From positions 1 through 60,008 of the IMG/VR virus record IMGVR_UViG_3300032330_000731: a DNA stretch of 60,008 bases; one strand, given 5' to 3'. Both the position numbers and the translations under genes were made by a program. Below, piece by piece: positions 45,350 through 60,008 of this stretch. The notes under the pieces are model-generated. The model was not told the origin of the DNA. It did no database searches and saw only the letters and a program-made list of their open reading frames with translations. Positions within the stretch are counted from its first letter, which is position 1. Every line of letters starts with the position of its first letter. Origin of the DNA: a virus. Its lineage: Duplodnaviria > Caudoviricetes.

Positions 45350-45545
45350 TTTTTACAAAAATATATATACCGGGGGGTATAGATTAAGAAAGTGATGGGG
45401 GGGGTGTTAAATATAAGATATTGTAATGAGGCAAGTGGAAATTAGTGGATTAATTTGGGTAAGTATTAGTTTGAGTGGATTAGAGCGTTACTGTTGGACG
45501 GGTCACTGCTAACCACAAAGGGGTATACCCCGGTGGGTGGGTCAA
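45350..45545. other. G-tract/palindrome-rich intergenic region, candidate packaging (pac) site
   Basis: ATATATATACCGGGGGG, a G8 run, and the perfect palindrome GGGGTATACCCC (45520..45531) between terS and terL. Confidence 0.4.
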
Positions 45546-45590
45546 ACCATATCCACATATTCACCCAAACCCTCTCCCCACATTTACACA

Positions 45591-46187
45591 CTACGCCTTC
45601 TTCTTCGTGTTATCCAGCAGACGTAAATGCCCAGACAGTTCCTTCTTCAATTGATCGGCTGTCACGACTGGTGCTGTTTCGGATGTGGATTGTGTAAATA
45701 CGCCTGATGCTTTGCCGAGTAATTCAAGGGCCTTTAAACGTGATCCTTCCTGTTTATCGTTCCGACTATGCGCAACCAACTCCCTCAGCACATACCTTCG
45801 TGCCGCCGCCAAGTCATCCGACAACGCCTCTACTGTCTGTCCCCACGCATCATTTAACATTTGGGACACCCTCGGGTGCCGACTTAATTTGTACGCAGAC
45901 GATGCGATTATTTGATCTGAGCTAGTGTCGTTTGGATAAGCAGCCTTATAGGCATCCTTCATTGTCATCCCTGAAATGATGTTGTTAATAAACGCCTGCT
46001 GTGCGATGGTCAGTGGGCGTTGTTTGGGTAACCCCCTTAGTGTTCCGTCTGATCTAGGTTTTGGTCCTGGTGCGAGACTAGCTAACTGTTCCACTTCAGA
46101 CTTTTCCGCGTTTTCTAGATTTAAATCATCCTCAGCGTCTTGACGGTCTAACTCTGCCAAATAATCTCTAATCGGTGCTTTGCTCAT
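45591..46187 (-). CDS. terS: terminase small subunit
   Basis: LT..QQAF......G.....AY.AAY HTH; A..L...P.V; RLKALELLGK..G.F. Confidence 0.85.
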   Translation of the reverse strand: MSKAPIRDYLAELDRQDAEDDLNLENAEKSEVEQLASLAPGPKPRSDGTLRGLPKQRPLTIAQQAFINNIISGMTMKDAYKAAYPNDTSSDQIIASSAYKLSRHPRVSQMLNDAWGQTVEALSDDLAAARRYVLRELVAHSRNDKQEGSRLKALELLGKASGVFTQSTSETAPVVTADQLKKELSGHLRLLDNTKKKA

Positions 46188-46256
46188 TTTTGAAACCTCG
46201 TTTATGCGAACGACCATACCCTTATCAGGATAGTGCTTTGTACGCAGTGTAAACCC

Positions 46257-46300
46257 TTGTCCACAGCTTGTCCACATACTCTATCCACATCTTATCCACA
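46257..46300 (+). promoter_or_regulatory. four tandem DnaA boxes (TTATCCACA orientation)
   Basis: TTGTCCACA 46257, TTGTCCACA 46268, CTATCCACA 46281, TTATCCACA 46292. Confidence 0.8.
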
Positions 46301-46346
46301 AGACGTAAGCACCCGGAGTCTGCCTGTAAACCCAGGGTAAACCCGA

Positions 46347-46429
46347 GTCTTCTATAAGACCTATTCCCACTCTTATATAAGACACAAGACTAGTCTTCTA
46401 TAAGACCTGACCGCAGTCTTCTATAAGAC
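46347..46429. repeat. four 14-bp palindromic repeats GTCTT-(C/A)TAT-AAGAC with a 23-bp period
   Basis: copies start at 46347, 46370, 46393 and 46416. Confidence 0.92.
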
Positions 46430-46432
46430 CTG

Positions 46433-46476
46433 TGTGGATAAACCTGTGGATAACTTATGTATAACCCTGTGGATAA
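46433..46476 (-). promoter_or_regulatory. four tandem DnaA boxes (TGTGGATAA orientation)
   Basis: TGTGGATAA 46433, 46445, 46468; TATGTATAA 46456. Confidence 0.85.
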
Positions 46477-46672
46477 CTTCGTTGTATAAAAGAGACAAAA
46501 CGCCTAGGATCGACGAACGGACCACGGTTGATAGCACGGTAGCTATCTGACCATTAAACGCAGCCTGGGCCGTTTTAATGCGTTCTAGGGGCATGTATGT
46601 TTAGACAGTGCTTGTGCTTTACAGGCCAGTCCAGTCTAGGTGTTTACCCTAGTCATGCCTTTTTGGTCTTTT

Positions 46673-46689
46673 CTGGCACGGTGGTTGCT
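46673..46689 (+). promoter_or_regulatory. sigma-54 (-24/-12) consensus site
   Basis: CTGGCACG-GTGG-TTGCT matches YTGGCACG-N4-TTGCW; faces the early operon. Confidence 0.6.
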
Positions 46690-46857
46690 ACGCGGGCGCG
46701 CACGGGCGCACGTTGGGTAGATTGATTGATGCTTGTCGGTCTGACGCGAGAACGACCATCACTTAGGGTAAGCACCTAGGCTATCGTGTTTACAGTGCGC
46801 GCAGCAATCGATAGCATCGGGGCTGGTTTAACAGCCCATGATGGGCATGGAGTGAAA

Positions 46858-47370
46858 ATGAACAGAGAGCAATGGTTAATGCAGGCGGTGGAAGAACTGC
46901 GCCCACTATTCCAGGCTGCTGGATACTCTTTGCCCACCACTGTGCGGGTTACCTGCGGGTTCCCTAGCACTGCCCGACGCAGTGGCACGTTGGGTGAAAC
47001 GTGGTCCGCAGCAGACTCTGCGGACGGCGCCACGGAAGTGATGATCAGCCCGGTACTGGCCGGCGCTGCGGATGTGCTGGCGGTGCTGCTGACACAATTG
47101 TCAGTGGCCGCTGATGGGCGTAAGCATGCCCAGGTGCTGTCGGCTGTCGGGTCCAATCCTGATGACTATGCCGGCCTGCTGGCGGACCTGGGCGACTATC
47201 CCCATGCTGCCCTGGCACTGCCCACCAAAGCCACTCAGGTCACCCGCATGCTGAAGGCCTGCTGCCCCTCGTGCGGTTACACCGTGCGACTCACGCAGAA
47301 ATGGGTTAGCAAAGGCCTGCCCATTTGCGGCACTTGTGGTGAAGGGTTTAAATTGGAGGCTGCAGAATGA
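46858..47370 (+). CDS. SprT-like protein lacking HExxH, with C-terminal zinc ribbon
   Basis: REQWL...LRP.F...VRVTCGFP...GE.W....SADG..E..ISP; TRMLK..CP.CGYTVR...KW...GLP.C. Confidence 0.75.
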   Translation: MNREQWLMQAVEELRPLFQAAGYSLPTTVRVTCGFPSTARRSGTLGETWSAADSADGATEVMISPVLAGAADVLAVLLTQLSVAADGRKHAQVLSAVGSNPDDYAGLLADLGDYPHAALALPTKATQVTRMLKACCPSCGYTVRLTQKWVSKGLPICGTCGEGFKLEAAE

Positions 47371-48956
47371 GCCGCGCTATTGTTTCGATTCTCAAGCACC
47401 CTGCTAGCACTGTGCTGGCTGCCGCCCGCGCACTGGGCTACACCGGGGCAGACGACAAAATGACCGCCGCAGAATGGATCGTTGTTTGCGGGCATGTCCA
47501 GGCGTTTGAGGGGCTTGTCGCGTCAGCGCAGCCGGCGCCAATCCTGGCGTATAAACCCAGCACCGCGATGGCAGCACTGCCACCCGCAAAACCTGCTAAA
47601 CCTGATCCGGTGTTTGTCCCGGTTGTCAATGACTGGGGGCAGAAAGCGATGTCGGCCATTACTGCGGTGGACAATCAACTCCAGGCAGTGGTGGTGGCTG
47701 TTGCTAAGCTCACGGGTGATCTGTCGGGCATCGATTCCCGCGCTGACAGCGCAAAGCTGGCCGCCGCTACTGCCCGTTCAGAGGCTCAACGCGCAGCAAC
47801 GCAGGCGGGCGACATGGTGCAGCAGGCCCGCGCCGACATGCAAAAAACCGAGACCGAATTGCGCCGCGCTATCGCTGATGCGGTGGCCCAGTTGCAGGCC
47901 CGTCCCGCGCCTGTCATTGACCCTGCTGCAGTCGCTACGGAGGTCTCCCAGGCTGTCGCTGCTGCGTTTAAACCGTTTGCCCAGGCTGTGACTGATGCCG
48001 GCGCAGAATCGACCATCGGCGCGATGACGTCAGCTAGCATTGTTGATCGGAAAACCGCAAAACAGGTTTTCGGAGTGAATGTTAATGACGCAAAGGGCAG
48101 TCCGGTAATGGTTGATATTTGGGACCATCCCGGCGCCCCTGCGGTTGACCCGACCTTTATTTGGTCTAAACCCATTCTGCGGCACCTGCTGCTGTCGCAA
48201 TCGACGGGCGAAAATGTTTGGTTTGGTGGAGATAAGGGCACAGGTAAGTCTGAGACTGCCCGACAATTTGCTGCACGCACGGGCCGTGGATTTACACGGA
48301 TTAACTTTCACAAGTATTCCGCCCAGGAGGACTATCTCGGCGCGACTGGCCTTCAAGCCGGGTCTACCGCCTTCGAGCCGCAAGCCTTTTTGAAGGCTTA
48401 CACAAGCCCTAGCACGGTCATCCTGCTGGATGAAGTGACTAACGCTGATCCGGGCAATCTGGCGCCCCTGAATGGCCTGCTGGAGCCCGGCGCTGCGGTT
48501 TCAATCGGTGGTCACGTTTGGAGGCGTGCCCCGGGCGTGCTTGTCTTTGCTGCAGACAATACCCTAGGCAGTGGAGATCAGTCGGGCCGGTATGCTGGCA
48601 CCCGTGAGATGAATAGCAGTCTGATTGACCGTTTTCCTCGGATTGTGCGGTTTGATTTTCTGCCCATGAAATCGGAAGTGGAAGCTGTCGTCCGACATAC
48701 TGGGTGCGTGCCCGAGTTGGCAGAGCATATTCTGCAGGCAGTTAATATCGCCCGTCAAAAAGTCACTACGGGCGATATTGTGGACGCACCCTCGATCCGC
48801 TCGGTGATCGGTTTCATCCGTGCGCTGGCGATGATGCCAGTAGAGGATGCGTGGGCCTCCAGTATTGCCGCACGCCAGCCCGCTGAGTCTGCCCTGGCGC
48901 TGGAGGCTATCCGCACGGCATCAATTGATGAATCTAAAATTAAAGGCTGGATTTAA
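47367..48956 (+). CDS. MoxR/CobS-like AAA+ ATPase with N-terminal coiled coil
   Basis: GDKGTGKS Walker A, ILLDE Walker B, AADNTLG.G, LIDRF. Confidence 0.9.
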   Translation: MSRAIVSILKHPASTVLAAARALGYTGADDKMTAAEWIVVCGHVQAFEGLVASAQPAPILAYKPSTAMAALPPAKPAKPDPVFVPVVNDWGQKAMSAITAVDNQLQAVVVAVAKLTGDLSGIDSRADSAKLAAATARSEAQRAATQAGDMVQQARADMQKTETELRRAIADAVAQLQARPAPVIDPAAVATEVSQAVAAAFKPFAQAVTDAGAESTIGAMTSASIVDRKTAKQVFGVNVNDAKGSPVMVDIWDHPGAPAVDPTFIWSKPILRHLLLSQSTGENVWFGGDKGTGKSETARQFAARTGRGFTRINFHKYSAQEDYLGATGLQAGSTAFEPQAFLKAYTSPSTVILLDEVTNADPGNLAPLNGLLEPGAAVSIGGHVWRRAPGVLVFAADNTLGSGDQSGRYAGTREMNSSLIDRFPRIVRFDFLPMKSEVEAVVRHTGCVPELAEHILQAVNIARQKVTTGDIVDAPSIRSVIGFIRALAMMPVEDAWASSIAARQPAESALALEAIRTASIDESKIKGWI

Positions 48957-48957
48957 A

Positions 48958-50535
48958 ATGAATCTCCAAACCATTATTGGCCGCCCGCAGGTGCTGGGCT
49001 GGGAATTGCGCACCGCAATCGAGCAGGCTTTGCCACGCATCACCCAGGCGCTGGCAATCAATCCTGTTAGCGTTTTTTGGGCGCCCGGCGCCACTACGGC
49101 ATCCATCGGACAGTATGGTGACATCCGGCTTCCCATGGTCAGTGATGATGCCGTTATCGGTCGGTCTATGGTGACGCGGTACGTGGGTTATATCGTCCAC
49201 GAGCTTCTGCACCGCAAATATACTGACTTTAATGTAAACGCTCCAAACGAGTATTTGGCCCGCTTCCACAATGCCGTGGAGGACGTTTGGATTGAGCGTA
49301 GGGCTGTCTCTGCTGCTTTGCTGGGCAATATTGAAAACCTTTTGTCCGGTTTGGTTGACGGTATTGTTGGCGAAGCCCTGGCACAGACTATTGATTGGAC
49401 AAACCCGGCCCAGTTTCCATTCTCTTTTGCGGTGTTTGGCCGTAAATACGTTTCCCGCAAAATCCCTGTCCCGGGCAATCTGCTGTCAATTTACATTGAA
49501 GCAGACAAGCGCATTGATTCCTGTCAATCATCCGCAGACACCCTAGAAGTGGCCCGCTGGATTGTGGATCAAATTGGGAAACAAGACAGCAAGCCAAACA
49601 AGCCCAGGGAGGCCCAGGGAGGCGCGCAGGGCGACGCACAGGGGGAAGCCCAGGGCGATGCACAGGAAGGCGATCAGGAAGCCCAGGGTGACGCGAAGGA
49701 AGGCGCCCAGGAAGCCCCTGATGCGGGGCAAAGCAAGCCCCTAAACGGCAAGCACGATACGGCAGTCGAAGTGGAACCCGGCCTGCCTGCTCGCCCTGGC
49801 GATAGGGGGACGTTCTGCCGTGGAAATAGTGTTTTGCCTGATCGGATTCACACTCCCACATGGGCATCGTATAGGTTAGAAGATTCTGATGTTCCTGCAG
49901 CACTGCGGGTTGATATTCGGAAGCTGTTTGCCAACACAGCAAACGACGATTGGCAAATGCACCGCAAAACAGGGTCAATTGATACCCGTCAATTGGCGAC
50001 TGGAGGCGCCAGCATGTTTAAACGTCGTCTGGAAACCTCCGGTGTTGATTCTTCGGTTGTTATCCTGCTGGATGTTTCCGGGTCTATGTTCCCTCGCCTG
50101 ATTGGACCGGCTGCAGGTGCCTGCATGGCCCTTATGTCTGCACTTGATGGTGCTGGAGTTGAATCCGCGCTGCTTACGTTCGGCGACGGTGTTTCGACGG
50201 TCAAACCGTTTGGCAAGAATAGTCGCCAAACAAAGCAACATCTTCAACATATAAACATGGGCGGAGGAACTGATGACTATGTTGCTTTGCTGCATGCGCA
50301 TAGTCTTTTGCATACCCGCAAAACAGGCCGGAAGGTTTGTTTTGTAGTGACCGACGGAGAGGGCCGTGTTTCAGAGACTAGAGCGCAAGCAAAAATTGGC
50401 GCAAACCTGGGCATTACGACCATCGGTATCGGTATTGATAAAGATGTTTCATATATTTATAAACATGCCGTGATGGTGAGAAAAGTGTCCGACCTGGGCG
50501 CCGCGATGTTCTCAAAGATCAAAGGAGTTCTTTGA
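48958..50535 (+). CDS. CobT-like VWA-domain protein with HExxH
   Basis: HELLH...N.VED..IE; acidic linker; LLDVSGSM (MIDAS), GGT, VTDG. Confidence 0.88.
   Translation: MNLQTIIGRPQVLGWELRTAIEQALPRITQALAINPVSVFWAPGATTASIGQYGDIRLPMVSDDAVIGRSMVTRYVGYIVHELLHRKYTDFNVNAPNEYLARFHNAVEDVWIERRAVSAALLGNIENLLSGLVDGIVGEALAQTIDWTNPAQFPFSFAVFGRKYVSRKIPVPGNLLSIYIEADKRIDSCQSSADTLEVARWIVDQIGKQDSKPNKPREAQGGAQGDAQGEAQGDAQEGDQEAQGDAKEGAQEAPDAGQSKPLNGKHDTAVEVEPGLPARPGDRGTFCRGNSVLPDRIHTPTWASYRLEDSDVPAALRVDIRKLFANTANDDWQMHRKTGSIDTRQLATGGASMFKRRLETSGVDSSVVILLDVSGSMFPRLIGPAAGACMALMSALDGAGVESALLTFGDGVSTVKPFGKNSRQTKQHLQHINMGGGTDDYVALLHAHSLLHTRKTGRKVCFVVTDGEGRVSETRAQAKIGANLGITTIGIGIDKDVSYIYKHAVMVRKVSDLGAAMFSKIKGVL
49609..49716 (+). 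repeat. degenerate 12-bp tandem repeat encoding (E/D/G)AQG units
   Basis: EAQGGAQGDAQGEAQGDAQEGDQEAQGDAKEGAQEA linker. Confidence 0.7.
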
Positions 50536-50547
50536 CCCTAGCCGCTA

Positions 50548-50565
50548 GCCCTGGTTCGCCAGGGC
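50548..50565 (+). other. GC-rich hairpin in the early intergenic region (no U-tract)
   Basis: GCCCTGG-TTCG-CCAGGGC. Confidence 0.6.
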
Positions 50566-50610
50566 GTGCGAGTGGGGCCACAGTGGCAACACATACCCGG
50601 ATATAAAACA

Positions 50611-50934
50611 ATGTCAAACGACGAACTGAACGTGCAGCAGGGCGCTGCATATGAAGCACTTCGCAACGCAATCGAAGCCGCAGTGGATGCCCTGGCAAGC
50701 GCTACAACCGCAGCCAACGTCTACGCCCATGTAGTGGCACTGCAGAGCGATGACCCTGCTCAGACCCTGGCGCAGTTAGCCTGGACGAACCGGGGAAGCT
50801 GGAGCGGTGGCCCGTTGGGCAAGAACAATCTGCAGGAGAACCTGCTGCGCGAGGAGGCTCTGCAACTGATGGTGCGCGATGAGTGGATGCGCCGCCCCTT
50901 GCGCAAGCTGCGCCCCATGAAAGGCCCGCAATGA
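50611..50934 (+). CDS. hypothetical protein
   Basis: ORF with GC-rich codon use. Confidence 0.7.
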   Translation: MSNDELNVQQGAAYEALRNAIEAAVDALASATTAANVYAHVVALQSDDPAQTLAQLAWTNRGSWSGGPLGKNNLQENLLREEALQLMVRDEWMRRPLRKLRPMKGPQ

Positions 50935-51014
50935 TGGAGGAAGTCTGGGATTTGCTGTTTGCCGCAGCACTGGGCGTGGCGGGTGCCTACCTGCTGGTGC
51001 TGTGGATAGCATGA
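50931..51014 (+). CDS. small membrane peptide (MMEEVWDLLFAAALGVAGAYLLVLWIA)
   Basis: hand translation; ATGA coupling. Confidence 0.5.
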   Translation: MMEEVWDLLFAAALGVAGAYLLVLWIA

Positions 51015-51069
51015 AATTAGTTACTGCTTAACGCGACATTTTTGCAATCATGTAAACGGAGATATTTAA

Positions 51070-51387
51070 ATGAACTTTATTAACTTGACCCCTCACGCCC
51101 TCACGATTGAGGGAATCGGCACCATTGAGTCATCAGGCGTGGCCCGCGTCAATGTCACGGCATTCCCTAGCATCAGTGCGTCTGGTGTGCGAGTGATGAA
51201 GAATGTGTTTGGCAATGTGAGCGGGTTGCCTGCTCCTAAGACGAACACTGTTTATATCGTCTCGGCGATGGTATTGAACGCAATCGGAATCCGCGCAGGG
51301 TCTGATGTTTTTGCGCCTGATACTGGCGAAGATGCAGTCCGAAACGACAAAGGCCACATCGTGGCCGTGAAGGGTCTGGTGTTTTGA
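51070..51387 (+). CDS. conserved phage hypothetical protein (NLTPH motif)
   Basis: INLTPH...GLP.P......IVS..V......D...PDTG...VR...G.I..V. Confidence 0.8.
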   Translation: MNFINLTPHALTIEGIGTIESSGVARVNVTAFPSISASGVRVMKNVFGNVSGLPAPKTNTVYIVSAMVLNAIGIRAGSDVFAPDTGEDAVRNDKGHIVAVKGLVF

Positions 51388-51602
51388 TCAAGCTGGTCAC
51401 AGACCGGCCTGCGATGATTAAAAACGAAGTTAATATAAGACAATCACTGGTTTTCGCAAGCCTGTCGGAGATTAAAACAAACGAGGTTTACATATCTTTT
51501 ATGGGGAGATGGTCAGTATATAGAATGGATAAAGATAGAATACCCCGATTGTGCGGGCATTACCCCGACATTCAATCCGCAATGTTTAGAGCTAGGAGAT
51601 AA
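51384..51602 (+). CDS. hypothetical protein
   Basis: coupled ORF. Confidence 0.55.
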   Translation: MIKLVTDRPAMIKNEVNIRQSLVFASLSEIKTNEVYISFMGRWSVYRMDKDRIPRLCGHYPDIQSAMFRARR

Positions 51603-51603
51603 T

Positions 51604-51747
51604 ATGTTGTTTGATGTATTTGATAATGACTTCAAAAAGGTGGGGACCGTCCAGGCCCCTGACCCGATTACCGCACTTCAAAAGGCCAAGCAACAGTTTA
51701 AATATGTTGCCGCGCCGATGGTGCAAGAATCCAGAGACAAACAATGA
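51604..51747 (+). CDS. small hypothetical protein (MLFDVFDNDFKKVGTVQAPDPITALQKAKQQFKYVAAPMVQESRDKQ)
   Basis: hand translation; SD AGGAG upstream. Confidence 0.6.
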   Translation: MLFDVFDNDFKKVGTVQAPDPITALQKAKQQFKYVAAPMVQESRDKQ

Positions 51748-51810
51748 TTTTATGTATTGGGTTGTTGTTGGTACTCGCTGTTTTGTTTACAGTCTATGAT
51801 GAATGGTAAT

Positions 51811-52011
51811 ATGAATACAAACACCAAGAGAAACGAGCACCCGTCCTGCGGTTGCACTTCATGCCGTCGAGGCGGAGCAAGCCACTGGGGGCAGTACATT
51901 CACACTGCCGTAAACCGTGCCATCCGGCGCCGAAACAAGGCCGCACTTAAAGCGATGAAGGACATTGACACCTATATGGCGCTTGTCAAATCAACACCAT
52001 ACACAGATTAA
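51811..52011 (+). CDS. small basic Cys-containing protein
   Basis: SCGCTSCRRG; last gene before the terminator. Confidence 0.6.
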   Translation: MNTNTKRNEHPSCGCTSCRRGGASHWGQYIHTAVNRAIRRRNKAALKAMKDIDTYMALVKSTPYTD

Positions 52012-52034
52012 AAAAGGGGCTTAGGCCCCTTTGT
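52010..52034. terminator. bidirectional rho-independent terminator
   Basis: AAAAAAGGGGC-TTAG-GCCCCTTT between convergent genes. Confidence 0.85.
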
Positions 52035-52038
52035 TGTT

Positions 52039-54786
52039 TTAAAACTTATCCACTAATTCAGAATACGTTCCTGCGGTTTTGTTATATAGCAAAGCCGTCT
52101 CGCCCTGGGTGCCAACCCATCTATATCTGCACTTCCAGACTGCAATCTCTACCATCTTGTCTGCCCGGTGGACGGTAATACCGCAGTCTGTTTTGGCCCA
52201 CCATGCCATTGAATTACCAGATACAACAACCTTGCCATTCCTCCGCGTGATGTATGCGCCTGTCGATACAGTCAAGCAATACACCTTACCTGCGTAAGGT
52301 ACAACAACCATATTTCGGGCGGGTTCAACCGTTCTTTCTTTTTCATTTCTGATCATTACGATATAACGGTCGTAATGATGAGACAGCGCCCCAGCGTAGG
52401 ATGAAATGTGCGCCCACATACCAAGCTCAATACATAGCCTCTGCACATCGTCTGCAAGCTGCTTGCTGGCAGTGTGATAAGTCGTATACCCTGATTCTTG
52501 TACGCTTCCGTCCCCAAAAATCATCCCGTCAAGCAACGCCTTCTTTGCTTCAATGGAAGATGACCATATCAGATTTGGAAGCCGCTTATTGGCGCAGCCT
52601 TCACCACAGTTTTCAATAACAAATTTCTGAAGCTCAGGGTTAGATCGCTTAAACATCCTGTTAACCCACATTGGCTTTTCGTATTCGCGTGCTGATTTAC
52701 GAACAACGCAAGAGGATTTGACGCCAAGAGCGCTTACAACTTCCCTTGGCAGACTAGAGTTCTCATCTACTTGGCAAACTGACAGTGCGCCCATAGACAC
52801 ATGCCCCTCCGCTATCCAAAAACCAACGTACCACCAGAACGGGTGGAGCGCATAGCCGTGATCAAAGTTTAAATTAGTAGGCGACGAGGCTTGGACTGGA
52901 TTGCCGACCATTGGAATAGACCAGCGTGATGTGGTTACATCCTCGCTATTGCAAAAATTAAATCCTTTACTCCAAGTGCATGGACGGCCCGTCTTTTTTG
53001 ACCCCTTAGTCTTCTTCCGGCTAAATGCAGGCTTAACCAACATTCTGTGGTTTGGAGTTATCAGGAAGTCGGTTCCATTACCAGACCAGTGATGCATTGG
53101 TCCGTCATGGTCGTATTCATGGATATGCTCCGGCAGTTCATAAAAAACATCCTGGGTATCTGGATTGAAGACGGCAACCCTATCTTCGTAGGATACTTGA
53201 GAGTGGTTGACCCATCCCCTCATCGTCAAGACTTCCGTATCTGACGAATAACACCCGCTAATGCTCATTCCATCCGGCCTGGGTTGATCGACGCCTGAAC
53301 GATTGACCTTACTAGGGTGAGCAACGAAAAATGTGTGGACATCGAACGCCTTACAGAACTTTTGAATTCTGGTCAGCATGTTACTGATTGCTTCTGTTTC
53401 TGTAGTGTTGTCCCGGGGAAGCTCAAGATAGTTATAAGGGTCAATCACCAAACCCCGGATTCCCATACGCTTTACACCGACCCTTGCTCTGTCAAGGATT
53501 GAGTCTAGGGTCGATGGTTCCTCTCCGTTTGAGTCGATGAATAGGAAGTGGTCATTCACCCAGTCAAGCGCAGCAGACTTTTCTGAATGAGACATGCGGT
53601 CCTTACCCTCAAAGAACCGTTTACCCGTGTAAATCTCCATCAGCCGGGATATATGAATCTCGGGTTGATTCTCAAAGCTACAAACCGCAAACTTCCAGTC
53701 ATCTTTCCTGGCAATGTTTACCATCATTTGATCAACGAAATTACTTTTGCCCGATGACGGATAACCCGTCACGACCGTAAGCTGCCCAGGTGCAACTGTG
53801 TAAATCTGGTCAACCGAGGAATATCCAGTCGAGAATCCCTTGCCTGTTCCTTTGGCGTATAAATCATTCAGCCTGTCTTCATACGAGGCTGCGATGGTCA
53901 GGCCGGCGATTGGATACGGCGCGGCAGCATCAATAATTTCATTAACCCTGACCCTCCCCGTCCGTGATGGGTCATTCCGTGATGGGTCAAGGAAGACTTC
54001 ATTCAGGTCTTTACTAGAGAACTTTGCAATCCTGCATTTCTCTTTGCCAATTCTGCGTGCCAGTTCTTCGGCTAACGCTTGGCCGGGACCATCCTGGTCT
54101 GTTGCTAATACTACATACGGTGCTGCGTCCAGTATCTCCCGCGCATTCCATACATAAGCAAACTTTTTATCCTCAGACGGCAGTACCTTTCCATCTGCGA
54201 CTTTGATTGGCGCCCCGGAAGGCACACTAACTGCATTTAAAACTCCAGACTCAATCAATGTCAGGCAATCAATCTCACCTTCGACAATGATGATTGGCTT
54301 GCCTTTTTCTACAAGGTCAATACCAAAGAAGTCATGCGCACCCCCGGCGTCTTGTGTAAAATCCTTTTCAGGGAACGATCTATATTTGGCAGATACTAAC
54401 GCCCCGTTCCTGAAATAAGGAAAACCAATTGCATCTGCGGTTTTGTTTAGGCGACTAAAGAATTTATCCGCAGCAAATAACTGCATTTTGTCTGCGGTTT
54501 CTTTAGTTATACCCCTTGTAAGTAAATAAGCATAATGTTTTTCTTCTAACTTATTACTGATAATTTCTTTAGTCACTATAGCTGCCAATTTAAACTCCCG
54601 TTTGGTCTTTGGTTGTATAGCGCCTGTCTCTTGACAGTGGTGACAGTAGTAAAGAACTGCCCCGTCACCCTTGCGGGTGAGCGTCATGTCTTTTGCCCTG
54701 CTGTTTTTTCTGTCTCCCGAGCATGCGGGGCAGGCTACTCTCGTTGATTCATTGAAGTCAAATTGCTCAATGAACTCAGGTGTCAT
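52039..54786 (-). CDS. Twinkle/T7 gp4-like primase-helicase, intein-containing
   Basis: N-terminal CPAC...CHHC zinc finger; TOPRIM (EGEID, DQD); GYPSSGKS; VIDPY; VAHP. Confidence 0.93.
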   Translation of the reverse strand: MTPEFIEQFDFNESTRVACPACSGDRKNSRAKDMTLTRKGDGAVLYYCHHCQETGAIQPKTKREFKLAAIVTKEIISNKLEEKHYAYLLTRGITKETADKMQLFAADKFFSRLNKTADAIGFPYFRNGALVSAKYRSFPEKDFTQDAGGAHDFFGIDLVEKGKPIIIVEGEIDCLTLIESGVLNAVSVPSGAPIKVADGKVLPSEDKKFAYVWNAREILDAAPYVVLATDQDGPGQALAEELARRIGKEKCRIAKFSSKDLNEVFLDPSRNDPSRTGRVRVNEIIDAAAPYPIAGLTIAASYEDRLNDLYAKGTGKGFSTGYSSVDQIYTVAPGQLTVVTGYPSSGKSNFVDQMMVNIARKDDWKFAVCSFENQPEIHISRLMEIYTGKRFFEGKDRMSHSEKSAALDWVNDHFLFIDSNGEEPSTLDSILDRARVGVKRMGIRGLVIDPYNYLELPRDNTTETEAISNMLTRIQKFCKAFDVHTFFVAHPSKVNRSGVDQPRPDGMSISGCYSSDTEVLTMRGWVNHSQVSYEDRVAVFNPDTQDVFYELPEHIHEYDHDGPMHHWSGNGTDFLITPNHRMLVKPAFSRKKTKGSKKTGRPCTWSKGFNFCNSEDVTTSRWSIPMVGNPVQASSPTNLNFDHGYALHPFWWYVGFWIAEGHVSMGALSVCQVDENSSLPREVVSALGVKSSCVVRKSAREYEKPMWVNRMFKRSNPELQKFVIENCGEGCANKRLPNLIWSSSIEAKKALLDGMIFGDGSVQESGYTTYHTASKQLADDVQRLCIELGMWAHISSYAGALSHHYDRYIVMIRNEKERTVEPARNMVVVPYAGKVYCLTVSTGAYITRRNGKVVVSGNSMAWWAKTDCGITVHRADKMVEIAVWKCRYRWVGTQGETALLYNKTAGTYSELVDKF
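52213..53253 (-). mobile_element. intein with LAGLIDADG endonuclease (347 aa)
   Basis: SISG|CYSSDTEVLT...GFWIAEG...LLDGMIFGDG...VYCLTV...RRNGKVVVSGN|SMAWW. Confidence 0.93.
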
Positions 54787-55022
54787 TTCATAGACCCATC
54801 TGATTTTCTAGGGAATGATCGGTTTTTTGACGGCTTCTCCAGCCGTACCCCGTCTTTATTAAGCCCTCCTTTGGATAGGGCTTTTACGTGCGCAACATCT
54901 TTACCAGTTCGATCAACTCCTTTGGCATCGAGCTTTCGTCTAGCCCGCTGTCGCTCCATGCGGTCTTCATGCTCTCCTCTGGCGAGTTGAGTTGCGTATT
55001 CGGTTTTGTAATCTCTGGGCAT
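54783..55022 (-). CDS. small HNH-like protein
   Basis: RDYK.EY...R.RARR......GKDVAHVKALSKGG.N.......S.NRS. Confidence 0.75.
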   Translation of the reverse strand: MPRDYKTEYATQLARGEHEDRMERQRARRKLDAKGVDRTGKDVAHVKALSKGGLNKDGVRLEKPSKNRSFPRKSDGSMK

Positions 55023-55134
55023 AGCAATTCCTCAAATGGAATCTCAAATGTTACCTTGTCTGCTGGGTCTTTCATAACAAATCCTGTTAATGATGTACAG
55101 AAACCCCTGTAGATTCTTATTATTGATATTGACC

Positions 55135-55353
55135 ACCTAAAGGCCCCCCTTCCCCATTGAAGGGGATCGGGGGAAGGTGCCACCGCCTTGCGGCATCTGC
55201 ATGCTAGTCTCCTAGCCCCTGGGCTTGCAGATAAGTCCAGCCCCACGGATTGTAGGGTAGTTGCCCTTGCCTTTCGGCTACCGTGTACCCTGTTCTTCCA
55301 CGCTGCCGGGTTCGCACTTGCTATCGGATGGAGTCCGAGGGGTGTCCCCCTGG
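55135..55353 (-). ncRNA. structured RNA / leader upstream of the primase operon (unknown family)
   Basis: three GNRA-capped hairpins and a possible pseudoknot on the minus strand; upstream TTGCAC-N16-TACAGT. Confidence 0.55.
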
Positions 55354-55453
55354 GGTCGCACTGTAGCAGGCTGCGCGCAAAGTGCAAGCCCCTTTGTGTG
55401 TTGTATGTTGGCAACAAAGCCCATGATGTGAGCCATATGTTTAAACACAGGTC

Positions 55454-55482
55454 TTGATACATTTAATTGTCTTTGCTACACT
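55454..55482 (+). promoter_or_regulatory. sigma70 promoter (extended -10)
   Basis: TTGATA-N17-TACACT with TGn before the -10. Confidence 0.7.
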
Positions 55483-55488
55483 AGCCGT

Positions 55489-55577
55489 GCCGGCTACTCC
55501 CCCGGCTCCGGGTCGCAGGCTCTGTCTCCCCGGGTCTTAGCCCTCACCTTGCTTACGCTTGGTGGGGGCCTTTTTTT
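55489..55577 (+). ncRNA. candidate ~90-nt sRNA with C-rich anti-SD loops
   Basis: promoter, two hairpins with CUCCC loops, then a terminator hairpin plus T7. Confidence 0.65.
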
Positions 55578-55973
55578 GGGCGCCACATCTTCCATAGGCT
55601 CGATCAGGATGTCCGTCCTGGGCGACACAGGATCAAGATGCCAGTAGATGTGCTTCTCCTTTACCTGCCTGTCGTTGATGTAAACAACGTCTTGAAGTAG
55701 ATCAAGAATCAAAGACTCATCTAGGTCAGGGCGTCTACTCGCATAGTAGATGTGCAAGGTCACCCGTACATCACAACTCAACAACGGGCTACATCGCTTG
55801 CACTGTCGTTTAAATGACTCAGAGTAGGTCAACGCCTTCTCTGACTTGATCAGTCTTGACATCCCGCCGTACCGCACCACACGACGACTGTTCGCCTTGC
55901 TGGCCGGCTCATCAAAAATTGTTTGCGATAGTGCTTGCGCGCCATCATTGCGTGTGCTATCGTCTAGGCTCAT
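55494..55973 (-). CDS. rusA: RusA-like Holliday junction resolvase
   Basis: PASKANSRR; RRPDLD...ILD.LQ...Y.NDRQV; exact start uncertain. Confidence 0.85.
   Translation of the reverse strand: MSLDDSTRNDGAQALSQTIFDEPASKANSRRVVRYGGMSRLIKSEKALTYSESFKRQCKRCSPLLSCDVRVTLHIYYASRRPDLDESLILDLLQDVVYINDRQVKEKHIYWHLDPVSPRTDILIEPMEDVAPKKRPPPSVSKVRAKTRGDRACDPEPGE
55540..55577 (+). terminator. rho-independent terminator
   Basis: GCCCTCACC-N12-GGTGGGGGC-C-TTTTTTT. Confidence 0.75.
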
Positions 55974-55986
55974 CGAAGGAGTTCTT

Positions 55987-56841
55987 ATGAAGGTGACCAA
56001 CAAGCACAACGCACCAGCTACGCTGATGACGTTGGCAACCACTGAATACTACAGCAAGGGTGCTGCGCAGTATTCTGTAACAGAGATCATGGGGCCACCC
56101 AAGATCAGGAGGCTAAGGGAGCAGTACAACGAGCAAATCACTACCGACGTCTCAGACATGCTGTGGCAGCTTCTAGGCTCTGCCCTACATGTAGTGATGG
56201 AACGCGGACAGACCGAGAACCATATCACCGAAGAACGCTTGTTCACTGTTGTAAATGGTGCAACCATCAGCGGGCAGATCGACCTCCAGGAAGTCACCCC
56301 TCAAGGGATCATCATCACCGACTACAAGTTGACAAGTGGCTGGGCAGTGATGCAGAACAAAGCTGAGTGGGAAGAGCAGCTTAACATTTACAAATGGCTG
56401 GTCGAGGTAGCTAAGAAAGAGAAAGTCACTGCGCTTTACATCTGCGCTTTGATCCGGGACTTTGACAAGCACAGCAACAAAGAAGGTTATCCAGAAGCCC
56501 CGATCCACATGCTTAGTATCCCCATGTGGACCGCTGGAAAGGCTCAGGCTCACGTAGAACAACGCATTGCCCTCCACAGTGCAGCCAAGGCAAAACATGA
56601 GCTTGGAGAGCCTTTAGACGACTGCACAGACCAAGAGCGATGGATGTCTGAACCTGTCTTTGCTGTTAAGCGAGAAGGTAGGAAGACGGCCATCAAGTTG
56701 TTTACATCTAAAGAAGCAGCAGAGGAGTTGGCAATCAAAGAAAAAGGTTATGTTGAAACGCGCCTTGCAGAGCCTAAGCGATGCACAGGTAATTACTGCG
56801 GTGTCGCAGAGTGGTGTACTCAATATCAGGAGTCAAAGTGA
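55987..56841 (+). CDS. PD-(D/E)xK (Cas4/RecB-like) exonuclease
   Basis: G.ALH...E; ISGQID; ITDYK; QLNIY; C-terminal RC..NYC.V..WC.QY. Confidence 0.85.
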   Translation: MKVTNKHNAPATLMTLATTEYYSKGAAQYSVTEIMGPPKIRRLREQYNEQITTDVSDMLWQLLGSALHVVMERGQTENHITEERLFTVVNGATISGQIDLQEVTPQGIIITDYKLTSGWAVMQNKAEWEEQLNIYKWLVEVAKKEKVTALYICALIRDFDKHSNKEGYPEAPIHMLSIPMWTAGKAQAHVEQRIALHSAAKAKHELGEPLDDCTDQERWMSEPVFAVKREGRKTAIKLFTSKEAAEELAIKEKGYVETRLAEPKRCTGNYCGVAEWCTQYQESK

Positions 56842-57107
56842 AAAAACTACTTGCAGATTTTAGTATGGCTTCCGGTTTGTTAATAAAGCATATCGGTGGT
56901 TTTCACCCATCATACAACCCTCTTCGCAGAGAAGTTGATGGGTTTACATATGACGAAGAGCTTCAAGAACCCGGCGTTATTAGCGCTGTAGCTACAACTT
57001 ACACAAGTTGCGATTTGCGAGAATTTGCTGCAGCTTTTATTGAAGTTGCAGACTGGCTGGATAAGCGCGCAGAACTGGCGCAGCTTGAACTGGAGAAGTC
57101 GAAGTGA
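56838..57107 (+). CDS. hypothetical protein
   Basis: GTG start coupled to neighbours on both sides. Confidence 0.6.
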   Translation: MKKLLADFSMASGLLIKHIGGFHPSYNPLRREVDGFTYDEELQEPGVISAVATTYTSCDLREFAAAFIEVADWLDKRAELAQLELEKSK

Positions 57108-57805
57108 ATGCCAATGATCTTTTGAAGCTCAATGTAAATGATCACGTTGAGAAGAAGAATGGCCTAAGCTATCTTTCATGGGCCTGGGCCTGGGCCGAGG
57201 CTTTGAAGGCTGACCCTACAGCAACGTTCCACGTTGAGTCCTATGAAGTTGACGGGCAAACGCAGTGCTACATGGATGTAAACGGAACTGCGATGGTGTG
57301 GGTGCGGGTCACCATGTTTGGTAAACCCATGACTTGTATGCTTCCGGTGATGAACTCAAAGAATGAACCCATCCCACTGATAGGACGGACGTTCAAAGAC
57401 AAGTTTGGTAAGGATAAGACAGAGAGGGTTGATGCCTTCAATGTCAACTCCGCAATCATGCGTTGCATGACCAAGGCTTTGGCCCTACATGGTCTTGGCC
57501 TTTACATCTATGCCGGAGAAGACCTGCCGGAAGAAGATGACAAGAAGGAAGACAAGAAGGAAGACAAAAAAGAAGAGCGAAAAGTTGACGAAAAAGCAAC
57601 AAAAGCCCCTAAGAGCGATGCTGATATTGAGTTGTTTGCTAAGAGCATGATCGAGTACACTCTTTTTTCAAAGACAGCAAGCGGACTGAATTCATTCTGG
57701 ATTGCCAACAAAGCGCAGCTAGATGAACTGAAGGTGTCGCATCCCGGGTTGTATGCAACGGTTCTTGATTCTTTTAAGGCTGCTAAGGCCGCAATTGGAG
57801 AGTAA
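57104..57805 (+). CDS. sak: Sak-like (DUF1071, Rad52-type) single-strand annealing protein
   Basis: EKKNGLSYLSWAWAW; LPVM; N.AIMRC.TKALA.HGLGLYIYAGEDLP. Confidence 0.9.
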   Translation: MNANDLLKLNVNDHVEKKNGLSYLSWAWAWAEALKADPTATFHVESYEVDGQTQCYMDVNGTAMVWVRVTMFGKPMTCMLPVMNSKNEPIPLIGRTFKDKFGKDKTERVDAFNVNSAIMRCMTKALALHGLGLYIYAGEDLPEEDDKKEDKKEDKKEERKVDEKATKAPKSDADIELFAKSMIEYTLFSKTASGLNSFWIANKAQLDELKVSHPGLYATVLDSFKAAKAAIGE

Positions 57806-58080
57806 TGATGGCAGATTTTGAACAACAGGCCGACTCTGGCCGACTGATGGCAAACGCAACCAAGAAGACTCAGAAGTCTCCCGACTACTGGGGTGAGATT
57901 GCGATTGATCCCAAAGACTTGACCAATGTGCAGGTGGTCAATGGTTTACATGTCTTCAAGCTCAGTGGCTGGAAGAAGACTAGCAAGTCAGGAGCGGTTT
58001 ACTTGTCTGTCTCGGTGAATAGATACGTTCCTGAAGGCACAGTTACTAAGCAAGACCAACAAGACGATGTTCCGTTTTAA
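57805..58080 (+). CDS. putative ssDNA-binding protein
   Basis: SG.L.......K.PDY.G; LSGWKK.SK.G..YLS; acidic DDVPF tail; follows Sak. Confidence 0.7.
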   Translation: MMADFEQQADSGRLMANATKKTQKSPDYWGEIAIDPKDLTNVQVVNGLHVFKLSGWKKTSKSGAVYLSVSVNRYVPEGTVTKQDQQDDVPF

Positions 58081-58099
58081 TTAAAACTTGGATATAAAA

Positions 58100-58522
58100 A
58101 TGAAAAACTTTATTGTTATTGTTTTGGTATTTTCTGTTTCTGCATGTAGCTCTAAGCTTGCTTCGCAAGACATCGTAGACACAAACATGACTATCTCTCG
58201 CCTAAATGCTCAGAAAAATGCAAATAGTTACTTGCCTCAAGCTTGGCCCGAAGGTTCTGTCCATCCACAATGGAACTCCAAGCCAACGCGCATTTTGATG
58301 CAGTCTGATTCAAGTATCACTGCGGAATGCCGATACGGCGATGGTTGGGCTTCAGGTGATCTGCAGTTTGAAAACGGCAGGTCCATCAAAATTAAGTGCC
58401 AAACAAATGGTGTTGGCAAAGGCATCAATGGCTGCATGCAAGATGCAGAGTTTCAGACCAAAGCATACAAAGCCGAAGACGGCAAGTGCGCCAATCTTGA
58501 TAAATTGGAGAAATTCCAATGA
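58100..58522 (+). CDS. lipoprotein
   Basis: MKNFIVIVLVFSVSAC signal peptide and lipobox; four further Cys. Confidence 0.8.
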   Translation: MKNFIVIVLVFSVSACSSKLASQDIVDTNMTISRLNAQKNANSYLPQAWPEGSVHPQWNSKPTRILMQSDSSITAECRYGDGWASGDLQFENGRSIKIKCQTNGVGKGINGCMQDAEFQTKAYKAEDGKCANLDKLEKFQ

Positions 58523-58620
58523 TGGGAGACTTAGCAGCAGCTTTAATTTTTGTGTTTGGCTTAATTGTTGGTTGCATGCTAAACATTTTAGTAAAGCGAT
58601 TCTTCGGCAAATTCAAATAA
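58519..58620 (+). CDS. small membrane peptide (33 aa)
   Basis: hand translation MMGDLAAALIFVFGLIVGCMLNILVKRFFGKFK; ATGA coupling. Confidence 0.5.
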   Translation: MMGDLAAALIFVFGLIVGCMLNILVKRFFGKFK

Positions 58621-58626
58621 AGTTAT

Positions 58627-59013
58627 ATGCCAATGAACTTTGAATGCCTCAAGGTGGCGCTCAAGCAAGACCGCACAGGTTTTGTCTTGACGCTAAAGAT
58701 TCACCCCGATGAAATCCCGGAAGCACTTATCCGCGACTTTGTTGGTGCCCGGTATGGCTGCGCTTTAGTTCGTATAAATGACGACGAGACGCCGGTTGTT
58801 TACAACGACCGGGTAATGAGGGCAGCAACTCTCTGCAAAGACAAAGAGTTTCATGGATTCCTCGGTGTTCTTAGTGAGGATACTGCAGTAGAAGCTCTGT
58901 ATAAATACTGTAGGATTTCTTCTAGGTCTGAGCTTAACGGTAATAAGAAAGCTCAGGATTTGTTTGATACCCTATTTGCAGAATACAAAGAAAGTCAAAA
59001 TGACCCATTCTAA
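58627..59013 (+). CDS. conserved phage hypothetical protein
   Basis: FE..KVALKQD..G.VLTL.IHPDE.PE...RDFVGARY; SRSEL. Confidence 0.75.
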   Translation: MPMNFECLKVALKQDRTGFVLTLKIHPDEIPEALIRDFVGARYGCALVRINDDETPVVYNDRVMRAATLCKDKEFHGFLGVLSEDTAVEALYKYCRISSRSELNGNKKAQDLFDTLFAEYKESQNDPF

Positions 59014-59293
59014 ACTAAAGTCCTTCCTAGCTTATATTGAGCCAGAGTCATACGATGAGCTAAAGAAGTTTGCATTGGCTAATAAGATTCCAATGACAAG
59101 GGTTGCGCGAGAAGCAATTAACGCACGGCTGTCTGGCAATGAACCTTACACAGCAGGATTTGATGAGGGCATTCAGCGGGCCATTGATTCTGTAAACAAG
59201 AATAAAGCAGCGCAGATGCGGTTTCCGAATGGCGAATCTGTTGCAGATTTAATTATCAAAGAGCTAAAAAATGAAATCATTGCCAAGCCCTGA
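59000..59293 (+). CDS. ribbon-helix-helix-like DNA-binding protein
   Basis: F.AYI....Y..LKKFA....IPMT.V.REAI..RL. Confidence 0.65.
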   Translation: MTHSKLKSFLAYIEPESYDELKKFALANKIPMTRVAREAINARLSGNEPYTAGFDEGIQRAIDSVNKNKAAQMRFPNGESVADLIIKELKNEIIAKP

Positions 59294-59344
59294 ACAACGC
59301 AGGGAGATTCGTTCTACAAAAAACATCAAAAATCGAGCAAAGAA

Positions 59345-59674
59345 ATGAAAAAGATTGATATGATCCGATCAGAGCTTGCCAAAGACATCAACCGCAGCGC
59401 AGCACTTATTGCAGAAATGACTGATAGTCAACCGCAATATGTAAACATGATTCGCCGTAGGGTTAAAGCAGAGATTGCTAACACCACGTCAAAGGTGCTT
59501 GAAAAGCCTAAGCGTAAGTCGTCAAAGGCGGTGGGAATTGCAAGTTTATATCTGCCAAAGCCTGAGCCTGTGAAGAAAAAATTTTATAACACAGAGCATA
59601 AAAACTACTATTGGATTGGTGCCGTTTCAATTGTTTGTATCTTTGCTTATGTCATTTGGCATGCTGCGCAATGA
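59345..59674 (+). CDS. hypothetical protein with C-terminal TM
   Basis: N-terminal HTH-like segment; hydrophobic C-terminus. Confidence 0.65.
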   Translation: MKKIDMIRSELAKDINRSAALIAEMTDSQPQYVNMIRRRVKAEIANTTSKVLEKPKRKSSKAVGIASLYLPKPEPVKKKFYNTEHKNYYWIGAVSIVCIFAYVIWHAAQ

Positions 59675-59895
59675 TTATTGGCAAAGGAAAAGCTGGTAGG
59701 CCACCTAGTATTGGATGGTGGCCTACTGGAGAACACACTCTGCGATGGTGGGATGGGGAGTTTTGGAGTTGGCCTTGCATAGACACAGACAAAGAGATTG
59801 ATGTTAGGTACTACAGTGCAAAGCGCGACCCGGCGCAAGACAAGATTAAATGGTATCCGCGCCCAAAAGAATGGCCGGAAAGAAGCAAAACTTAG
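59671..59895 (+). CDS. Trp-rich hypothetical protein
   Basis: PPSIGWWP......RWWDG..WS...W..RP..WP. Confidence 0.7.
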   Translation: MIIGKGKAGRPPSIGWWPTGEHTLRWWDGEFWSWPCIDTDKEIDVRYYSAKRDPAQDKIKWYPRPKEWPERSKT

Positions 59896-60008
59896 GAGTT
59901 AAAAATGAATGCAGCAAGACTTGACATTACACAGTCTTATCAGTTGATGGTCCTCGTTAAGGATGAGTTTGTAAGCTCCAACCTTAACGATGGTGAATTT
60001 GCGGAGTA
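59886..60008. repeat. terminal direct repeat (assembly circularisation overlap), copy 2
   Basis: identical to 1..123; ORF 59671..59895 runs into it and the 20..295 gene start is repeated. Confidence 0.97.

Follow-up and report, generated by a model that had tools for sequence, protein, structure and literature searches.

The 60,008-nucleotide (nt) stretch analysed here, called the window throughout, covers positions 1..60,008 of the viral record IMGVR_UViG_3300032330_000731, and is a complete double-stranded phage genome of 60,008 base pairs (bp) with direct terminal repeats. On its minus strand, a gene for a RusA-like resolvase is followed by a 470-nt gap, by a gene for a small HNH-like protein, and by a gene for a primase-helicase, with a bidirectional terminator closing the operon (Table 1; coordinates are numbered on the whole stretch). 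An earlier inspection of the letters alone, the sequence-only reading, had proposed that the gap holds a highly structured, possibly pseudoknotted RNA of unknown type that leads into the HNH/primase-helicase genes. The comparative analysis reported here bears out that proposal. The element, which is read on the minus strand and termed RNA-2 (55341..55128 by covariance-model match), almost certainly represents a real and new family of structured, non-coding phage RNA of about 210-230 nt, as supported by covariation among homologues, by the lack of an Rfam match, and by a locus in which the RNA is contiguous with the HNH/primase-helicase genes.

Homologues were found in several ways. With the intergenic region of the window alone as query, nhmmer recovered a block of about 220 nt in 17 of 35 viral contigs fetched via the neighbouring RusA protein; the block corresponds approximately to window positions 55340..55121, and its flanks are not conserved. 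A 21-nt pattern from the 3' strand retrieved at least 118 further stretches in viral contigs, and a pattern from the 5' part at least 120. The profile matches 220 of the 240 loci fetched from uncultured viral contigs (designated by L-numbers, such as L011 and L094), and among the fetched loci, unique full-length copies number 102 in the short class (median 225 nt) and 19 in the long class (341-424 nt), next to 44 loci with the 5' part alone and 15 partial copies. A covariance model, R1, built from 63 representatives less than 93% identical (set A2), identifies exactly one copy in the genome, at 165.5 bits and an E-value of 9.8e-50 over model positions 1-232, a score that is partly by construction because the window sequence was in the training set; the nhmmer search from the window alone provides independent support. 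Sets A2 and A3 were gathered with sequence patterns, A2 largely with the 3' pattern, so that invariance inside the patterns is partly ascertainment. Among 37 unique members found without the 3' 21-mer, 8 have the exact 21-mer, the GGGGUAGGGGG core is still present in nearly all, and the 3' strand GGGGWAGGGGG is retained even in members found without that bait.

The single-sequence folding energy of the element lies within chance (z = -1.47, with 9 of 100 shuffles folding as well), and it is thus comparative evidence, not thermodynamics, that sets the element apart from chance. On A2, the model consists of 14 helices and 63 pairs, with three pseudoknots. Standard pairs fill 94.6% of 3885 cells versus 81.4% in shuffles, and none of 500 shuffles reaches the observed value. 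The sequence-only reading had staked its RNA on covariation, and 32 of the 63 pairs have indeed changed on both sides, giving 471 such cells versus 132.7 in shuffles; the covariation score is 0.410, while shuffles score 0.175 and partners slid by 1-3 columns score 0.056-0.099. Compensatory changes, those in PK3 among them, were already present in the first alignment, which preceded A2. Because MAFFT mis-registers the variable hairpins H4a, H4b, H6, and H8a, their counts are lowered, not raised. Furthermore, 56 columns of A2 are invariant.

From 5' to 3', the fold is made up of a 5' module, a three-way junction, a pseudoknot domain, and a 3' domain (Table 1). In the 5' module, the loops of H1 and H2 pair with downstream strands to form PK1 and PK2, with A2 pair types of GC32/AU30/GU1 for columns 14-47 of PK1 and CG35/GC25/UA2 for columns 38-58 of PK2. 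Two other partners considered for the H1 loop gave way to the covarying PK1: an RNAalifold pairing of its CUCC with GGGG after H5 was displaced (GC32/AU30), and a pairing with UGGGG of H8c was dropped. In the three-way junction, H3 is 100% paired in A2 and has 4 of its 5 pairs changed on both sides. PK1, PK2, and the junction are additions to the sequence-only reading, whose quoted strings are all present on the minus strand and whose three small tetraloop hairpins reappear as H4a, H6, and H7, each with covariation in homologues. The loop-to-downstream pairing that it had drawn is PK3, which covaries in homologues, being 99.1% paired in A2 with 4 of 7 pairs changed on both sides and with pair types of AU29/UA20/GC13 (columns 133-173) and UA43/GC19 (columns 134-172). 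The hairpin that carries this loop had been placed at 55219..55240 in the register CUGGACUU/AAGCCCAG, in place of which covariation favours H5, with GGGCU/AGCCC as its stem (CG43/GC12/GU8 for A2 columns 119-141). Finally, the G/C-rich stem predicted at the 3' end is confirmed by the homologues as H8, a three-part stem in which CCUUU is bulged on the 3' side.

The variation in H8 also identifies the functional strand. The G-rich 3' strand of the stem is fixed while the 5' strand alternates between C and U, and in A2 all 11 pairs of helices 12 and 13 vary on one side only, between G-C and G-U; because these changes would be A-C mismatches on the opposite strand, the functional strand is the minus strand of the window. 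An open reading frame (ORF) of 192 amino acids (aa) at 54884..55462 spans the element in the window, and the sequence-only reading had raised coding selection on it as a competing account. However, no frame runs open across the element in 79 of 96 full-length homologues, and the remaining 17 use different frames; among 64 members with the anchor motif, the open frames are split 7 and 6 over two anchor-relative frames; homologue lengths modulo 3 are distributed 31/33/32 (n = 96); and Pfam finds no family in the ORF. Judged from these comparisons, the element is not protein-coding. The same reading had entertained a folded single-stranded DNA that serves as a priming signal, and a signal of this kind, or an origin, would suit an element that adjoins a primase-helicase operon. 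Against it stand the strand-specific changes from G-C to G-U, which occur on the minus strand only (helices 12-14), the conserved promoters upstream and terminators around the element, which indicate transcription, the double-stranded genome with terminal repeats, and the lack of iterons in the alignment. That the conserved element is DNA or part of an ORF, and not an RNA, is accordingly exceedingly improbable.

The RNA has no counterpart in the catalogues searched. At gathering thresholds, Rfam 15 (4227 models, among them ribozymes, riboswitches, RNase P, tmRNA, 6S, group I/II introns, GOLLD, ROOL, HEARO, and Polynucleobacter-1) gave no matches in the whole window, which answers the Rfam check suggested by the sequence-only reading, and with E-values up to 10 in 54900..55650 it gave four weak sub-threshold matches on the plus strand and none on the element strand. 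There were likewise no Rfam matches on 8 homologous loci, and on 16 variant loci only one tRNA and Betaproteobacteria-1 were matched, both away from the element. ARAGORN predicted no tRNA or tmRNA genes in the window and none on the element in 40 loci. A literature search returned no description of this RNA. It may, however, be one of the unnamed candidates in a 2023 catalogue of structured RNAs from viral contigs, which has more than 10,000 entries (PMC10690425).

Table 1. Coordinates of the RNA-2 element, its candidate promoter, and the surrounding genes in the window.
Feature	Coordinates	Strand	Description
RusA-like resolvase	56042..55494	minus	gene upstream of the gap
Intergenic gap		minus	470 nt between RusA-like and HNH-like genes; holds structured RNA
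Candidate promoter	55360..55387	minus	sigma-70-type; TTGCAC 55387..55382, 16-nt spacer, TACAGT 55365..55360, TGC before -10
5' module	55287..55338	minus	H1, PK1, H2, PK2
H1		minus	UCGGA 55338..55334 with UCCGA 55328..55324; loop CUCCA
PK1		minus	H1 loop CCAU 55331..55328 with GUGG 55301..55298
H2		minus	UGC 55316..55314 with GCA 55306..55304
PK2		minus	H2 loop ACCC 55311..55308 with GGGU 55290..55287
A-rich linker		minus	GGAAGAACA, between 3' strands of PK1 and PK2
Three-way junction	55244..55285	minus	H3/H4a/H4b
H3		minus	CACGG 55285..55281 with CCGUG 55248..55244; encloses H4a and H4b
H4a	55278..55269	minus	GCC-GAAA-GGC
H4b		minus	GGG 55266..55264 with CCC 55257..55255
Pseudoknot domain	55195..55243	minus	H5, PK3, H6
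H5		minus	GGGCU 55243..55239 with AGCCC 55225..55221; 13-nt loop
PK3		minus	H5 loop AUCUGCA 55232..55226 with UGCAGAU 55201..55195
H6	55216..55203	minus	GCUAG-GAGA-CUAGC; between the two PK3 strands
3' domain	55134..55194	minus	H7, joint, H8
H7	55194..55185	minus	GCC-GCAA-GGC; joint GGUGG next
H8	55179..55134	minus	three-part stem
H8a		minus	CACCU 55179..55175 with AGGUG 55138..55134
H8b		minus	CCCCC 55173..55169 with GGGGG 55149..55145
H8c		minus	CCCC 55165..55162 with GGGG 55155..55152
A/U-rich linker	55133..55112	minus	behind the RNA
Weak hairpin	55111..55096	minus	5 bp, UACAG/CUGUA; no U-run
HNH-like protein	54783..55022	minus	79 aa; phrog_4590 (E 7.3e-08); first conserved gene downstream
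Primase-helicase	52039..54786	minus	915 aa; Toprim + DnaB_C; LAGLIDADG intein inside
Terminator	52013..52032		bidirectional; closes the operon

The 3' domain has a further peculiarity. In 122 of 125 unique members, the 6-9 nt that follow H7 are repeated as the 6-9 nt of the 3' tail, and the two copies change in parallel from member to member, being GGGUGAA, GGGUGGAA, GGAGGAA, GAUGGCAUA, CCUGGA, or others. Both copies flank the 5' strand of H8a, which is complementary to each of them, and this parallel-varying arrangement, X/Y/X', looks like a switch by its sequence. The local alternative hairpin X:Y has a loop of only 1-3 nt in many members, and no 6-nt complement that might serve as another partner for the repeat was found within 250 nt. 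H8b and H8c, followed by a near-invariant UCUUU, resemble a weak terminator or pause.

The 5' module is not confined to RNAs with the body of RNA-2. Of 81 newly fetched loci, 51 match the profile only from position 2 to about 54-110, and continue behind the 5' module as different non-coding sequences of about 300-400 nt. The module itself is about 55 nt long and consists of H1, H2, and PK1, joined in the window's family by PK2. In 40 RNAs with other 3' bodies plus the window, its 11 pairs are 99.3% formed, and at the free purine-pyrimidine pair of PK1, 21 have GC and 20 have AU, with neither GU nor AC seen; in divergent full-length members, PK1 is swapped wholesale to UGGC:GCCA. The window RNA is probably one family of a superfamily defined by the 5' module. 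The other RNAs headed by the module are found among L161-L241 (for example L191, L203, L164, L174, L237, and L239) and make up at least several families, one large group of which ends in ...CACCCUUGGGG; no Rfam match was found in 12 such loci among the 16 scanned. Variation of another kind distinguishes the long class, which keeps the full core and replaces the H4a tetraloop hairpin with a stem of about 20 bp that bears a branched insert of 100-200 nt.

A separate unit stands ahead of the element in most relatives. It is made up of a strong sigma-70 promoter, a second RNA, RNA-1, about 100 nt in length, and a spacer of some 10-25 nt, with the -10 box ending 106-120 nt ahead of the element in 12 of the 18 best-scoring loci. 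The 5' hairpin of RNA-1 pairs through its loop with an internal segment of a long terminator hairpin ending in a T-run, and this pairing is phage-specific, as runs of at least 7 nt occur in 41 of 73 own-locus versus 81 of 1078 cross-locus comparisons. Phage lambda (PR'-6S RNA-tR') and phage P4 (CI-RNA leaders) likewise make a short promoter-proximal transcript that ends at a terminator before an operon. It is RNA-1 of the relatives, and not the window RNA, that is similar to these leaders, and no Q-like or CI-like factor was identified. RNA-1 had no Rfam matches in 8 loci scanned; it lies about 20-130 nt upstream of the element in L059, L095, L108, L133, and others, with at least 4 sequence types distinguished by eye. 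In L023, L075, L137, L077, L041, L150, L118, L053, and L004, the RNA-1 terminator and the element are set apart by an additional module of about 110 nt, GGAACUAGG...GGGUUAGCGCC...CUAGUUCCUCCUCC. In L094, L133, L095, L107, L117, and L108, the complement of the RNA-1 5' hairpin recurs in the spacer immediately ahead of the element (in L094, GGCAGUGGAA versus UUCCACUGCC), and the RNA-1 loop would then have two alternative partners. Complementarity between spacer and RNA-1 hairpin is striking in L094, L133, L095, and L107, but over all loci it is modest, with runs of at least 7 nt in 10 of 66 loci versus 46 of 972 cross-locus comparisons, and it is not used as support.

The window lacks RNA-1. Its TTGCAC...TACAGTGCGA block, which precedes RNA-1 in L011, L142, L101, and L013, instead sits about 20 nt before H1, and would start transcripts at about 55357..55353, some 15-20 nt ahead of the first helix. 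The sequence-only reading had placed a promoter here, and as a candidate for the minus-strand RNA it stands as plausible, being common to those four relatives; its match to the consensus is weak, and the consensus promoter scan of the window did not flag it. Behind the RNA, the same kind of scan, made for terminators and promoters, listed no minus-strand terminator before the next gene.

An A/U-rich tail follows the element in nearly all homologues, and three arrangements are found behind it. In one, a small GC hairpin is followed by a ribosome-binding site and start codon. In another, a true T-run terminator comes first, and a new extended -10 promoter stands between it and the next gene, as seen by eye in 11 loci (L147, L127, L119, L116, L117, L118, L100, L064, L094, L139, and L121). 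The third consists of another structured leader in which the ribosome-binding site is sequestered. A leader of this type, GAGACACGGCUAGG...CCAGACCGAAA.GCG.ACCUCCCGC..., lies about 20-110 nt after the element in L080, L148, L060, L071, L076, L145, L059, L098, L112, and L134; through its CCUCC it pairs with GGAGG in the ribosome-binding site of the gene that follows, which gives it the look of a translational switch, and it has no Rfam match in L080. A crude scan within 110 nt downstream (n = 96) counted 12 strong terminators, 29 weak ones, 32 loci with a hairpin only, and 23 with none, and because the scan misses bulged stems that are visible by eye, these counts are lower bounds.

The genes around the element are diverse. 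Upstream genes are mostly RusA (29 loci) or a Toprim primase (13 loci), and the first downstream ORF of at least 70 aa belongs to 40 different clusters, which include a 2OG-Fe(II) oxygenase, a replication initiator-like protein, a PAPS-reductase-like protein, the small terminase, and HNH-like plus primase-helicase. The conserved downstream clusters are on the strand of the element, and many start 20-120 nt behind it. Transfer RNA genes lie directly upstream on the same strand at L047:8315-8469 (2 genes) and L139:2343-2864 (6 genes), which are 2 of 40 loci scanned, and at L164:8872-8944 (1 gene), which comes from a separate scan. At L013:4814-4931, Betaproteobacteria-1 (RF02932, 94 bits) is found behind the RNA-1 terminator in the slot that RNA-2 fills elsewhere, which offers a hint of the host group and of RNA cassettes that can replace one another.

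The neighbours in the window itself deserve brief description. The 79-aa HNH-like protein matches no Pfam family, and its homologous cluster, which is found in 35 loci, has a representative that matches phrog_4590 at 1.8e-18 and has a weak Pfam HNH match. The intein lies within the helicase domain of the primase-helicase (Pfam LAGLIDADG_3 at residues 748-796), and homologues without it are about 560-570 aa long. The RusA ORF extends about 35 codons past its Pfam RusA domain (residues 46-147 of 182), and this tail (55494..55600) overlaps a clean plus-strand intrinsic terminator, 55547..55567 plus a T-run, which stands behind a promoter-like site at 55454..55482 (TTGATA, 17 nt, TACACT, TG in front). 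The pair, at 55454..55577, is antisense to the 3' end of the RusA ORF and could be the source of an antisense RNA of about 85 nt; the weak sub-threshold Rfam matches of this unit come through the terminator only. Between the replication and packaging modules, at 47367..50535 on the plus strand, two large ORFs match the PHROGs 'porphyrin biosynthesis' and cobaltochelatase CobT subunit.

Similarity searches of a GenBank collection of cultured phages, made with the window element and with RNA-1 plus RNA-2 of L118, found no recognisable copy. A search of 185,579 bacterial species genomes for the 21-mer gave only 6 stretches, one of which is a full element on a 7.8-kilobase contig binned with a betaproteobacterium, and another a partial element in a Georgfuchsia bin. 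The hosts of the freshwater phages with this RNA are probably Betaproteobacteria.

The RNA shares individual traits with several described systems. GOLLD and ROOL reportedly lie next to tRNA genes in some cases, as this RNA does in L047, L139, and L164. As described in PMC12286853, these 'ornate' RNAs are likewise phage-borne, with an intricate fold, a function yet to be assigned, and a gene-agnostic context. They are about 580-800 nt long, whereas the present RNA is about 210 nt, has no sequence or structure match to them, and usually stands directly before co-directional genes. The HEARO/IscB omega-RNA (RF02033) is, like this one, a pseudoknotted RNA some 200 nt long that has an HNH-containing ORF downstream of it; however, RF02033 has no match here, the HNH-like protein of the window is 79 aa long without RuvC and is found in only 35 loci, and no guide-like variable 5' end was seen. 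Betaproteobacteria-1 occupies the same slot in L013, before the same kind of genes and in the same likely host group, and its function is also unknown, but its 120-nt sequence and fold are unrelated and the window RNA does not match its model. With Bacillus EAR, a cis-acting processive antiterminator RNA, the RNA shares a promoter-proximal place on the strand of the genes, independence of gene identity, and a frequent position before terminator-like hairpins. The same traits belong to HK022 put (PMC9378689), and the 5' module, with two hairpins, is about the size of put. As described there, put is two simple stem-loops without the three pseudoknots, a comparison made by description and not by sequence. 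Unlike put and EAR, most relatives of this RNA have the terminator upstream of the element, and some have a new promoter after it; the order of promoter, element, and terminator that the put/EAR type requires is seen in loci with a terminator behind the element, and inside the window operon no minus-strand terminator is predicted. The RNA thus resembles GOLLD/ROOL in lifestyle, put/EAR in position, and Betaproteobacteria-1 in slot, and none of them in sequence and fold.

The diversity of neighbouring genes, the terminator and fresh promoter that isolate the RNA in some loci, the peripheral insert, the tRNA neighbours, and the replacement of RNA-2 by another small RNA in the same slot all argue for an autonomous product and against an autoregulatory leader or a gene-specific riboswitch. 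With a rough probability of 0.4, an RNA that functions autonomously once termination or processing has freed it is slightly favoured over a cis-acting element that controls read-through. The fold itself would be the functional product of an RNA made early in infection, and would serve as scaffold or decoy for a protein or small ligand bound via its invariant unpaired purine-rich joints, with an action not aimed at tuning one particular downstream gene. In relatives with a strong terminator and a fresh promoter behind the element, release would be by termination. Several points weigh on the other side. In the window, neither terminator nor promoter lies between the RNA and the HNH/primase-helicase genes, so that it is physically a 5' leader, and its release would call for cleavage in the A/U-rich linker after H8, a step that is purely conjectural. 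A strong terminator behind the element is absent from 84 of the 96 loci in the crude scan, and a switch-like X/Y/X' repeat is more typical of regulatory leaders. Transcript evidence consists of two 151-nt contigs on the region from one metatranscriptome run (54924..55074 and 55105..55255), which show neither ends, strand, nor level and may reflect DNA carry-over. Finally, the co-directional downstream clusters and the promoter-proximal place equally fit a cis-acting element.

A leader that acts in cis on transcriptional read-through into early or replication genes is a serious contender, if one short of an even chance. It might be a processive antiterminator of the put/EAR kind with RNA polymerase as its target, or an attenuator, in which the 3' hairpin (H8b/c plus UCUUU) and the X/Y/X' repeat would form a switch. 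Polymerases that have passed the upstream RNA-1 terminator would be set by RNA-2 for the rest of the operon. Its contiguity with the HNH/primase-helicase message in the window and the many co-directional genes 20-120 nt behind it elsewhere are as expected of such a leader, as is its usual place behind a promoter-proximal terminator RNA, and a gene-agnostic context would be predicted for a general elongation-control element. Of 96 loci, 61 have a hairpin behind the element, often with a weak U-tract, and 12 have a strong terminator; the two-hairpin 5' module of about 55 nt is common to RNAs with different bodies, and the repeat around the H8a 5' strand varies in parallel in 122 of 125 members. 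Yet in the 11 loci where a strong terminator and a new promoter intervene before the genes, control in cis is dispensable, and the window operon contains no predicted minus-strand terminator to overcome. Between the element and the downstream hairpins, no mutually exclusive pairing was seen, the repeat lacks a 6-nt complement within 250 nt, and the X:Y hairpin would often have to close on a loop of 1-3 nt. In addition, the size of the RNA, its 56 invariant columns, and its inserts of 100-200 nt exceed known put and EAR elements.

Catalysis, which could overlap with either an autonomous or a cis-acting role, would account for the nested pseudoknots, the many invariant unpaired nucleotides, the GNRA loops, and, as in RNase P and group I introns, a peripheral helix with room for large inserts; the sharp 5' and 3' edges of conservation between unconserved flanks, and a position between transcript modules that may need separating, would suit a ribozyme that cleaves or processes itself at its own boundary as well as a larger catalytic RNA acting on another substrate. 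A ribozyme is nevertheless distinctly unlikely, as no catalogued class was matched in Rfam 15 even at E-values up to 10, there is no recognisable conserved context for a cleavage site, and known self-cleaving classes are much smaller. A classical riboswitch, in which an aptamer for one metabolite regulates a defined downstream pathway, is less likely still. The RNA recalls riboswitches in that it is a 5' leader in the window, is aptamer-like in complexity, has A-rich strands next to its pseudoknots, and might pair in an alternative way at the X/Y/X' repeat, but the downstream genes are unrelated (40 clusters, none consistently metabolic), no expression platform overlaps the conserved fold, the downstream hairpins lie beyond the A/U-rich linker and show no conserved complementarity, some loci have a new promoter downstream, and neither the peripheral inserts of 100-200 nt nor the lack of an Rfam match fits this class. 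It is also conceivable, though rather doubtful, that RNA-2, and in particular its shared 5' module with two pseudoknots, belongs to a new RNA class that either works directly on the transcription machinery or is catalytic, and that would form with RNA-1 an all-RNA, two-stage gate into the replication genes. RNA-1 would then be the gate and RNA-2 a commitment or processing step, and through interchangeable 3' bodies the phages would differ in inputs or specificities.

Large RNAs that combine several pseudoknots with dozens of invariant unpaired bases have so far nearly always proved to be ribozymes, riboswitches, or ribonucleoprotein cores. The present family is abundant in uncultured freshwater phages, with at least 118 and at least 120 stretches retrieved by the two patterns, and absent from the cultured phage genomes searched. 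Its modular grammar of promoter, optional terminator RNA, 5' module, and exchangeable body lends it to experiment, as every module can be removed, exchanged, or mutated, and natural variants already offer the compensatory changes for such mutants. Solving its role would add either a new class of functional RNA or a new form of RNA-only control over phage early genes, and the RNA also gives a handle on a group of uncultured phages.

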